In this document: piece after piece, positions 270-4,316 of the stretch
Position numbering within the stretch: the stretch's first letter is position 1
How the letters are laid out: every line of letters begins with the position of its first letter
Source: a virus
Taxonomy: Duplodnaviria > Heunggongvirae > Uroviricota > Caudoviricetes
DNA length: 4,316 nucleotides
Direction: 5' to 3' (one strand)
Virus record (IMG/VR): IMGVR_UViG_2671181094_000004
The notes under the pieces: generated by a model
Database searches by the model: none
What the model was told of the DNA's origin: nothing
Seen by the model: the letters and a program-made list of their open reading frames with translations, nothing else
Made by a program: the position numbers and the translations under genes

Positions 270-299
270 GCCTGTGTCCATATTACGTGGGTAGGATCA
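270..299 (+). repeat. IS3 right terminal inverted repeat
   Basis: The terminal ~30 bp end in ...gggtaggatca. The reverse complement TGATCCTACCCACGTAATATGGACACAGGCC has the IS3-family TG...CA terminus. The exact IR length was not measured against the left end, which is not in the window. Confidence 0.7.
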
Positions 300-455
300 C
301 ATACCGTCATGAGCGACATGCTTATATTCCCTTCCTTCCATAAACGATTTTTCCCGGGCCTTTTTTAACGTACCTTTTTTTATTCCTTTCAGCGCAATTA
401 ACTGCTCTTCGGATACCCATTTGCCGGGAGAGACAATCATGATTACTTCGCTCAT
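297..455 (-). CDS. Excisionase-like small DNA-binding protein (Xis family candidate), C-terminally truncated by the IS3 insertion
   Basis: ATG at 455-453 to TGA at 299-297 gives 52 codons by manual translation: MSEVIMIVSPGKWVSEEQLIALKGIKKGTLKKAREKSFMEGREYKHVAHDGM. The W...TLKKARE...GREY pattern resembles lambdoid Xis proteins (lambda Xis has ...RRWVRE...DGREYLF). The stop codon is the last 3 nt of IS3, so the native C-terminus is missing. The RBS is weak. The ORF is absent from the supplied track, presumably below its length cutoff. Confidence 0.45.
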   Translation of the reverse strand: MSEVIMIVSPGKWVSEEQLIALKGIKKGTLKKAREKSFMEGREYKHVAHDGM

Positions 456-2999: not shown

Positions 3000-3092
3000 T
3001 TTGTTTTAACCTCATGACAGATTTAAGGATGAACAAATCCCTGCCATTGCTGGCATATAAGAATGAAACCGGATATTTATTACGGAACTGTT

Positions 3093-3284
3093 TTAAAGAC
3101 CTGCCGGGATTTCGATATTATCCTGGTGAATAACTTTATCGACCGGGTAACAGTTACCGGGAATTTTCTGTTCGGTTGCTGCAGTCATACACTCCTGCAT
3201 TGTCCTGTGAACACTGACTGCAATATCAACTGGCTCTCCGGAAACAAGAAAAACTGTCAGAACAAGCGCAAATGCTGAATTCAT
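3093..3284 (-). CDS. Small protein (63 aa) with an N-terminal hydrophobic segment (possible signal peptide or membrane anchor) and two Cys in the C-terminal half; function unknown
   Basis: The ATG at 3284-3282 overlaps the upstream gene's TGA (3283-3281) as ATGA, and AAGGA lies ~10 nt upstream. The protein is MNSAFALVLTVFLVSGEPVDIAVSVHRTMQECMTAATEQKIPGNCYPVDKVIHQDNIEIPAGL. The longer track ORF (81 aa from 3338) has no better start context. Confidence 0.6.
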   Translation of the reverse strand: MNSAFALVLTVFLVSGEPVDIAVSVHRTMQECMTAATEQKIPGNCYPVDKVIHQDNIEIPAGL

Positions 3285-3469
3285 TGTGCACATCCTTTTG
3301 GCATCAGACGTAAACGAGCCAGCATTGAAACAATGCATATTTTATTTAATAGCTCCCGTTCTTGTTTTCTCTTGTTAATGGCATCTTCAGTAAATACAGG
3401 GTTACTGATAGTGACACCAATTTCAAAACAACCTTCAGACGTATTAACGTTTGGTAATAACGTTTTCAT
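3281..3469 (-). CDS. Small early-region protein (62 aa), RacC-like by position immediately upstream of the exonuclease gene; identity not verified
   Basis: The ATG at 3469-3467 has a strong SD (GAGGA) 8 nt upstream. The protein is MKTLLPNVNTSEGCFEIGVTISNPVFTEDAINKRKQERELLNKICIVSMLARLRLMPKGCAQ. The 97-aa track ORF starts at a GTG (3574) with no SD, so the ATG start is preferred. Its stop overlaps the next gene's start (ATGA), indicating translational coupling. Confidence 0.65.
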   Translation of the reverse strand: MKTLLPNVNTSEGCFEIGVTISNPVFTEDAINKRKQERELLNKICIVSMLARLRLMPKGCAQ

Positions 3470-3830
3470 TATCGCGTCCTCAACAATGAATTTTGTGATG
3501 CAGTGCCTGGTGCCTCCAGGTGACGTTAACCAGTTAACAATTAACGCCGGATACAGAGAATCCACCCATAACACTGTTTTTGGTTTTAACTGTTCCGCGT
3601 GCGCTTAGCCGCATTCACCGCATCACAAAATTCACTTTAAAAACGGCGGCAGAGCAGTCACGGAGTAAAACTGATACCGCCAAACGTCACCAGAAAATTG
3701 ATAACAGAGGGCGTTGCAGCGGGGTTGTCACTTAAGCGTATGGTCAACCTGACAACTCGGTGTCCTCAACGGGGAAGGAATAACCCCGCCATACTTACCG
3801 CCGCGCCATTTCGCGGGTTGCCACAACCGG

Positions 3831-3892
3831 AAGCGCACGGTCGAATTAAATTTAACGACACCGTACAGTGAGACGAACTTCGCCGTGCGCTT
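3831..3892. repeat. Perfect 10-bp inverted repeat (aagcgcacgg / ccgtgcgctt) flanking a 42-bp spacer that contains a 10-bp AT palindrome (ttaaatttaa, 3846-3855)
   Basis: Read directly: 3831-3840 aagcgcacgg and its exact reverse complement at 3883-3892. It lies in the ORF-free divergent intergenic region, ~80 bp upstream of the plus-strand ATG at 3972. Confidence 0.6.
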
Positions 3893-3971
3893 TCGTGTTG
3901 TGTGCCTGCTTTTAACCACGTCAGGCGAGGTGGTATCCTTCTTATTCCGAATAACCAAGAAGGAAATCTAT

Positions 3972-4040
3972 ATGACTAAAGAAGAATTTGTCTCTTATAT
4001 TTTTGATAAAACGGTTGAGGTAATGACTCCAACTTATTGA
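3972..4040 (+). pseudogene. 5' remnant of a divergently transcribed gene, disrupted by IS1 after codon 16; the reading frame runs into IS1 and stops at 4038-4040
   Basis: AGGA at 3961-3964 lies 7 nt upstream of the ATG at 3972. The native codons give MTKEEFVSYIFDKTVE; IS1 sequence begins at 4019, and the remaining codons (VMTPTY, then stop) are IS1-derived. The identity of the original gene cannot be determined from 16 residues. Confidence 0.55.
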
Positions 4041-4316
4041 TAGTGTTTTATGTTCAGATAATGCCCGATGACTTTGTCATGCAGCTCCACCGATTTTGAG
4101 AACGACAGCGACTTCCGTCCCAGCCGTGCCAGGTGCTGCCTCAGATTCAGGTTATGCCGCTCAATTCGCTGCGTATATCGCTTGCTGATTACGTGCAGCT
4201 TTCCCTTCAGGCGGGATTCATACAGCGGCCAGCCATCCGTCATCCATATCACCACGTCAAAGGCCGACAGCAGGCTCAGAAGACGCTCCAGTGTGGCCAG
4301 AGTGCGTTCACCGAAG
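4019..4316 (-). mobile_element. IS1 insertion sequence (partial; continues beyond the window end), InsB-proximal end facing the prophage
   Basis: ggtaatgactccaacttattgatagtg from 4019 matches the IS1 terminal inverted repeat (GGTAATGACTCCAACTTATTGAT). The downstream sequence encodes the InsB C-terminus on the minus strand. The 9 bp adjacent outside are aacggttga (4010-4018); the target-site duplication cannot be verified. Confidence 0.9.
4034..4315 (-). CDS. insB: IS1 transposase InsB, C-terminal fragment; 5' partial, starts beyond the window end
   Basis: The frame is open from the window end to the TAA at 4036-4034. The translation ...[75 protein letters not shown] matches my memory of the IS1 InsB C-terminus. 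Residues encoded by 4256-4315 differ at a few positions from the IS1 copy I remember, so this is an IS1 variant. Confidence 0.85.

Follow-up and report, generated by a model that had tools for sequence, protein, structure and literature searches.

Knowledge of the small RNA DicF dates from 1989, and that of its processing from 1990. The dicF/dicBF operon of the Qin prophage of Escherichia coli K-12 has reportedly been studied by Faubladier in 1990, by Balasubramanian in 2016 and by Ragunathan in 2023.

For K-12, it has been shown that the operon is transcribed from dicBp, located upstream of ydfA, and that neither primer extension nor RT-PCR revealed a promoter inside the operon (PMC10448788). 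Here, a DicF species of 190 nt requires RNase III and a species of 53 nt requires RNase E (PMC10448788), and the end of a 72-nt form results from cleavage of the read-through transcript by RNase III (PMC9438474). The RNase III and RNase E processing of DicF, as well as the repression of ftsZ, is known for K-12 only (PMC10448788, PMC5069750).

The stretch of DNA analysed here, in the following called the window, has a length of 4,316 nt and is a remnant of a lambdoid prophage of the E. coli/Shigella type. On its left side, the right end of an IS3 element (1-298; 100% identical to annotated IS3 copies) adjoins and truncates the excisionase gene of the prophage (ORF 297-455, minus strand). The integrase is absent and, since it is missing, this prophage copy cannot excise. 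Further to the right, the minus strand encodes an exonuclease of 823 aa (528-2999), YdfD (3093-3284; DUF1482, annotated as lysis protein; Pfam PF07358, E 2.1e-26) and the cell-division inhibitor DicB of 62 aa (3281-3469; Pfam PF05358 DicB, E 1.9e-40, positions 1-62/62). Here, ydfD overlaps the stop codon of dicB, which is annotated by RefSeq in identical loci. Between ydfD and the exonuclease gene a terminator-like hairpin, TGCCAGCAATGGCA, is present on the minus strand (3034-3057). On the right side, an IS1 element starts at 4019 (4019-4316 in the window, with an InsB-like ORF on the minus strand at 4034-4255), which cuts a plus-strand ORF 47 nt after its start and separates the dicF-dicB module from any remaining operon promoter and repressor. 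The megablast match to intact loci ends at 4018, and the contiguous IS3...IS1 arrangement was present in no complete E. coli genome of the collection searched. Since the start codon of dicB is found at 3467-3469, position 3470 is the first base of its leader, and the interval 3470-3971 comprises all bases from this codon to the start of the plus-strand ORF.

The initial annotation had described this interval as a divergent intergenic region with nested inverted repeats and had considered an operator, a switch or a small-RNA locus. This reading is supported in part, since the small-RNA locus stands, whereas the operator or switch does not. The two strongest features of the interval were absent from it, namely DicF on the minus strand (3644-3696) and a long-range inverted repeat (3487-3505/3616-3634), which is perfect over 15 bp, extends to 19 bp at 95% and is reached in 0 of 300 shuffles. 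The scan of the Rfam families, which had been proposed as a check, identified DicF at once: the 53-nt sRNA matches RF00039 over model positions 1-52/52 (E 3.3e-15), and its 72.5 bits exceed the threshold of 48. A small-RNA locus or structured noncoding RNA had thus been named correctly, although the sRNA itself had not been placed. The DicF layout consists of a single-stranded seed followed by the terminator stem-loop (3645-3681) and a U tract (3639-3643). It is identical to the annotated dicF of K-12 in 52 of 53 nt, the last base being the sole difference, and the record of phage Tritos annotates the same stretch as DicF. Furthermore, dicB starts 174 nt downstream of DicF on the same, minus strand, as in the dicBF operon.

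The near-identity to K-12 extends well beyond DicF. Compared with the ydfC-dicF-dicB interval of K-12 Qin, 417 of 444 nt (94%) are identical between 3470 and 3913, including 172 of 174 nt of the dicF-dicB spacer and, on the upstream side of DicF, 134 of 135 nt. This near-identity, the identity of DicF and dicB and the predicted conserved helices described below were obtained directly from the sequences. To the right of ~3913 the resemblance to K-12 is lost (29 of 65 nt identical beyond 3905), and ~3913 is, judged from the alignment, a mosaic joint. Matches to the interval were found in 4739 of 5426 complete E. coli genomes and also in viable phages, for example mEp460 and Tritos. In the intact copies, a repressor/Cro pair is followed by small genes, the noncoding stretch and dicB-ydfD-exonuclease-xis-int, an order which K-12 Qin, E. 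coli CP53 and the phages Tritos and mEp460 have in common. Since every intact copy shows this order, the interval lies within a leftward early operon, which begins beside the repressor/Cro pair ~1.1 kb further right. As a separate observation, 247 bp of the 254-kb record of Aeromonas phage AP1 (MT713136.1, 249906-250152) are 100% identical to window positions 3460-3706, covering the dicB start, the leader and DicF, which are unannotated there; assembly contamination or a very recent transfer are possible explanations.

The interval very probably represents that part of the early-left (PL-like) dicBF operon of a Qin-like remnant which carries dicF, and it contains four RNA modules. Transcription would proceed from right to left as a polycistronic transcript, starting at a repressor-controlled promoter further right, beyond IS1. 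The first module, a hairpin at 3905-3820, would be cut by RNase III to create the 5' end of the 190-nt pre-DicF, which would continue with the second module, a conserved structured 5' domain of 115 nt (3827-3713). The 5' end of the third module, DicF (3696-3644), would be generated by RNase E in the single-stranded stretch following the 5' domain, and its 3' end by its own intrinsic terminator. On read-through, the fourth module, the leader (3645-3475), would form, in which a stem of ~30 bp pairs the U tract with the ribosome binding site of dicB, the first gene 3' of the RNA modules. Cleavage of this stem by RNase III would yield the 72-nt DicF and a processed dicB mRNA, and mature DicF would base-pair with ftsZ and other host mRNAs. 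The dependence on RNase III and RNase E as well as the transcript sizes in this scheme are taken from the K-12 literature. The native promoter lies outside the window and IS1 at 4019 possibly disconnects the operon from it, so that the locus may here be silent or driven by read-through.

All repeats listed in the initial annotation were located where it had placed them. Taken alone they are not significant, because dinucleotide shuffles of the region give them often: 9% of the shuffles contain a perfect inverted repeat of 10 bp or more, and nearly all of them contain 7-bp inverted repeats. They are considered real since they are conserved and partly covarying among relatives, and not by significance alone. 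In contrast, the reiterated TCAAC motifs are not clearly enriched, with 3 copies in ~500 nt and 17 copies compared to 10.3 expected in the whole 4316-nt window. The repeats are RNA helices of the minus-strand transcript and not protein operators, and the assignment of each of them to a specific RNA helix is a useful result of this analysis. The folding energy is uninformative for the strand, since both strands fold far better than shuffles (z -4.9 for the minus and -5.8 for the plus strand). DicF, the terminator and the G-U pairs were used to assign the strand. A number of conserved pairs form as G-U in the minus-strand RNA and would be A-C mismatches on the other strand, which places selection on the minus-strand RNA.

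The long processing hairpin upstream of pre-DicF (3820-3905, minus strand) contains the 10-bp inverted repeat as its core (AAGCGCACGG at 3831-3840 and CCGTGCGCTT at 3883-3892) together with the AT palindrome TTAAATTTAA (3846-3855). Its minimum free energy is -38.3 kcal/mol (z -3.7), and 0 of 200 shuffles fold as well. Of ~24 predicted pairs, 21 consensus pairs are kept across 13 variants; the lower stem of ~21 bp is conserved and the apex is hypervariable between relatives. Both this hairpin and the stem of the dicB leader provide the about two helical turns (roughly at least 20 bp of mostly continuous dsRNA) of an RNase III stem. The transcript lengths known from K-12 were mapped onto the window through the gap-free alignment, a length arithmetic with an accuracy of about ±5 nt. 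Here, the 5' end of the 190-nt species maps to ~3833 in the 3' strand of the hairpin, the 3' end of 72-nt DicF to ~3625 and the end of the 1,146-nt ydfABC-dicF transcript to ~3501, the latter two falling in opposite strands of the ~30-bp leader stem. This arithmetic is self-consistent, since the same start site, implied by '+813/814', also predicts the end of the published 1,608-nt K-12 transcript at the terminator-like hairpin after ydfD (3034-3057). We infer from these positions that the hairpin 3820-3905 would be the RNase III substrate yielding the 5' end of the 190-nt pre-DicF, and each cut was assigned to a predicted stem in the same way. At its base, the hairpin shares 3820-3827 of its 3' strand with the 5' strand of helix 1 of the following domain, and the two pairings are mutually exclusive.

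The conserved 5' domain of pre-DicF (3713-3827, minus strand, 115 nt) sits between the RNase III hairpin and DicF and is predicted to form a four-way junction. It consists of helix 1 (3820-3827/3713-3720), hairpin a (3801-3816) and stem 3 (3797-3800/3758-3761), which carries hairpins b and c. Here, two further elements of the initial annotation are found, since hairpin b corresponds to the GC hairpin CGGGG...CCCCG (3770-3788) and hairpin c to the 7-bp repeat (TGACAAC 3750-3756/GTTGTCA 3724-3730). A covariance model built on the domain, R1, scores 154.5 bits on the window and gave 94 matches in the 100 sources searched; no Rfam family matches the domain at E<=1. Among 54 distinct sequences, 96.9% of the cells pair, compared to 29-55% in controls with slid partners, and 8 pairs change on both sides, a number reached by 1 of 500 shuffles. 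In addition, a candidate pseudoknot of 6 bp, GUAUGG (3789-3794) with CCAUAC (3738-3743), is kept in 99% of the cells, and its strands are the two most invariant unpaired segments of the domain. Its pairing changes from U-A to C-G in the P1 lineage; since this change counts as one evolutionary event, the pseudoknot is regarded as a candidate only. Predicted loops and junctions contain the most invariant nucleotides of the domain, GGUAAGUAUGG and CAGGUUGACCAU. In hairpin b, the loop (3775-3783 and equivalents) varies in sequence and length and is always pyrimidine-rich with a UCC/CUCC core, as in the variants UUAUUCCUU, UUUCCUCCAUUG, GCGACUCCUUC and CCUAGUCCU. This loop resembles an anti-Shine-Dalgarno sequence and could be a second seed or a contact site.

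The 5' domain is combined with different 3' partners. In 81 loci it is followed by the canonical DicF seed and terminator, in 17 loci of cdtI and Stx2c-type phages by a different seed and terminator and in 10 loci by a P1-type tail; several rarer partners exist besides. In phage cdtI, the domain is found ~280 nt downstream of a near-consensus pL (TTGACA-16-CATAAT), which is overlapped by operator repeats common to the pR region. In P1, it lies ~50 nt downstream of the C1-controlled promoter Pban in a region labeled 'dicF-like region' in the GenBank record. A search of genome contigs with a GC-rich 17-mer gave nearly only chance matches in GC-rich genomes, the only real one being Escherichia albertii. 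Four variants (L138 of E. albertii at ~6745-6950, and L030, L043 and L049) have kept the 5' domain together with most of the seed of DicF, UUUUCUGGUGA, and have a shorter, different terminator hairpin, GGCGGAAA(C/U)GGAUAUCCGCC. The terminator module thus appears to be exchangeable independently of the seed.

The spacer between dicF and dicB forms a leader (3475-3645, minus strand) with a minimum free energy of -70.5 kcal/mol (z -6.6); when 3465-3645 was folded, 0 of 200 shuffles folded as well. Its closing stem of ~30 bp (3616-3645 with 3475-3506) has the perfect 15-bp repeat as its core and pairs the U tract of the DicF terminator and the following bases with the Shine-Dalgarno sequence of dicB (GAGGA, 3478-3482). 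The Rfam family STnc100 (RF02076) matches the leader over its full span (3437-3646) with 34.5 bits against a threshold of 47 (E 5.6e-5); the copies of mEp460 and Rac score 40.1 and 43.8 bits, respectively, and all copies 33-44 bits. Because these scores fall below the threshold, the spacer is termed STnc100-like and not a member, and it is likely a distant relative of STnc100. The same layout precedes kilR in Rac-type phages, the kil gene of Shigella phage 75/02, terB of P7 and tciA of P1, and its pairs are kept across the kilR, terB and tciA copies with some compensatory changes. We infer that the closing stem would be a second RNase III site, and that read-through transcripts would carry dicB in a translationally closed form which RNase III cleavage remodels. 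STnc100 and PasD have been described as trans-acting Hfq sRNAs, not as cis leaders (bioRxiv 10.64898/2026.05.13.724894). A bona fide STnc100 of 114 bits is present in the late region of mEp460 (L255, 40232-40422), where it follows the Q genes and a pair of tRNA genes and precedes an ORF annotated as 'TolA', and in P1 and P7 the order is tRNAs, STnc100-like element and tciA or terB. RNAs of the STnc100 type may generally be leaders of the following gene and not free-standing sRNA genes.

Two other explanations of the interval as a whole have to be weighed. If it were a divergent control region, the repeats would act on the leftward operon and on the rightward gene as operators or as a switch. 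Besides the repeats themselves, the plus-strand ORF speaks for this, for which a strong ribosome binding site had been noted and was confirmed (AAGGA, 8 nt before the ATG at 3972). The window contains its first 15 codons and two bases (3972-4018). In intact relatives it encodes 66 aa and belongs to phrog_34441, as seen for the full-length ORF of CP53 (E 1.5e-50), and the corresponding place in phage SfII holds a counterpart of 63 aa, to which the aa identity is 29%. Conservation in SfII is higher over the 75 nt upstream (3896-3971, 77.8% identical) than over the ORF itself. According to this comparison, the ORF probably represents a genuine small gene that has signals of its own, and because of this and of the conserved 75 nt, 3896-3971 may hold a rightward promoter or a 5' UTR; a simple scan reported no promoter in this stretch. 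However, a rightward promoter there would not turn all of the 500 bp into a divergent control region. Between 3200 and 4100, the minus strand showed no sigma-70-like site, the two plus-strand sites found in the interval are at chance level, and the HTH repressor/Cro pair is located ~1.1 kb to the right in CP53 and mEp460, which does not correspond to the operator/promoter (immunity) region of a lambdoid phage. Elsewhere, promoters that bear operators are located beside the repressor genes, OL-type repeats are found at pL in cdtI, and the K-12 experiments found no internal promoter. Furthermore, the repeats tolerate G-U pairs and covary as RNA, and the apex bearing the AT palindrome is partly hypervariable between relatives. 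A divergent promoter and operator switch is unsupported for an interval that is internal to a leftward polycistronic operon, and we regard it as highly improbable. ARAGORN found no tRNA-like element.

Even less credible is that the conservation reflects a small basic protein encoded on the minus strand. The interval contains stop-free stretches of up to 79 codons (3731-3967 minus, 3641-3868 plus and 3538-3732 plus), and the two plus-strand ORFs of 51 and 57 aa have no family match. The minus-strand ORF of 76 aa (3731-3958) matches phrog_8854 with E 2.1e-27, and a 3-nt indel in the hairpin apex between the window and K-12 preserves its frame. Nevertheless, these stretches start with TTG or GTG only; the 76-aa ORF has no ATG, no Shine-Dalgarno sequence and no Pfam match, and PGAP makes no call. 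In a set of 66 distinct translated variants, the length of the open frame ahead of the conserved core varies between 22 and 119 codons. The commonest variants of the K-12 type contain TAG stops in frame, and in the largest cluster the frame is shifted by 1-nt indels in hairpin b. Since in-frame stops and 1-nt indels break the frame in most relatives, the ORF is considered to be an artefact of gene calling. The statement of the initial annotation that the interval lacks a credible ORF is in line with this: the stop-free stretches have no Pfam match, the RefSeq pipeline annotates none of them in intact relatives, and no conserved ORF crosses 3470-3971. Several GenBank records contain 'hypothetical protein' calls over the pre-DicF RNA or antisense to DicF, and the mEp460 record extends dicB to 94 aa, into the dicB leader. 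Phrog_8854, these calls and the extension of dicB, seen at 3731-3958 (minus) of the window and at 3300-3455 (plus) and 3001-3285 (minus) of locus L003, look like annotation artefacts turned into a protein family. This cautions that, in phrog_8854 and several 'hypothetical proteins', ORFs have been called over a structured RNA.

Within the dicF operon, the role of the 5' domain has to be considered separately. Quite possibly, but short of probable, the domain is a passive structural ruler without a function of its own, which leaves a single-stranded window for RNase E before the terminator. RNase E makes the 5' end of DicF just 3' of helix 1, and all variants of the family consist of the domain, 12-40 unpaired nt and a terminator, as expected for a ruler. 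A ruler would not, however, require that the most invariant nucleotides are located in predicted loops and junctions, and the domain is 78-88% identical in P1 and the lambdoid pL leaders despite the replaced seed and terminator. It seems rather doubtful, although worth considering, that the domain would be an autonomous structured RNA family with its own function in early phage transcripts; as an RNA family it may be the only new element of the locus. We propose as the most attractive function the suppression in cis of the terminator which always follows, by which transcription from pL or Pban would reach dicB/exo/xis/int or, in P1, ban. Alternatively, the domain could be a scaffold for the biogenesis and stability of swapped seed-terminator modules. 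The data are compatible with each of the three, a passive ruler for RNase E, a scaffold for biogenesis and an antiterminator acting in cis. When the pL operons of cdtI, K-12 and the window type were searched for an antiterminator protein resembling N, only families of unknown function were found. If the domain acts on transcription or on sRNA biogenesis, this would explain how N-less lambdoid phages read through the DicF terminator and how the targets of prophage sRNAs diversify by module swapping. Of the whole locus, the most conserved piece is the portion of pre-DicF which K-12 discards.

Among the known systems, the putL/putR sites of HK022 resemble the 5' domain: in either case a structured RNA of the early leftward transcript precedes terminators that need read-through. 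Nevertheless, put RNA forms two stem-loops and the consensus of the 5' domain a four-way junction; put adjoins its promoter, whereas the domain is ~0.8-0.9 kb away; and put has two copies per genome, downstream of both early promoters, whereas R1 has a single match in the whole of mEp460 and none in HK022. A sensitive blastn search of 3697-3905 against the whole HK022 genome gave nothing significant. A put antiterminator RNA, which acts in cis via the zinc-binding domain of RNA polymerase beta' to suppress the terminators downstream, was therefore rejected, based on the missing alignment, the other architecture and the single copy in mEp460. In the 'dicF-like region' of P1, downstream of Pban/Op72, the domain is 78% identical with compensatory changes, is present in sense orientation and is followed by an intrinsic terminator. 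In contrast to the window, this region has neither a DicF seed nor an upstream RNase III-type hairpin of the Qin kind, and tRNA genes follow. The leaders of kilR (Rac), tciA (P1) and terB (P7) resemble the dicF-dicB spacer in their long closing stem and inner hairpins, among them a common CCUGGAGGCACCAGG hairpin with a compensatory change, and all of them, like the dicB leader, precede small toxic or division-related genes.

The gene-free interval is the already known dicF locus together with its processing signals, and the finding as such matters little, since this copy is a near-identical, IS-truncated remnant of a known locus. The window and the dicF/dicBF operon of K-12 Qin share the same DicF, the hairpin on the ydfC side, the 5' domain, the spacer and dicB-ydfD in the same order and on the same strand. 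They differ to the right of ~3913, where intact relatives of the window type carry a plus-strand ORF of 66 aa and a minus-strand ORF of 121 aa in place of ydfB-ydfC. Furthermore, the exonuclease gene is intact in the window (823 aa), whereas its K-12 counterpart ydfE is a pseudogene, and, unlike K-12 Qin, the window copy is truncated by IS3 and IS1.
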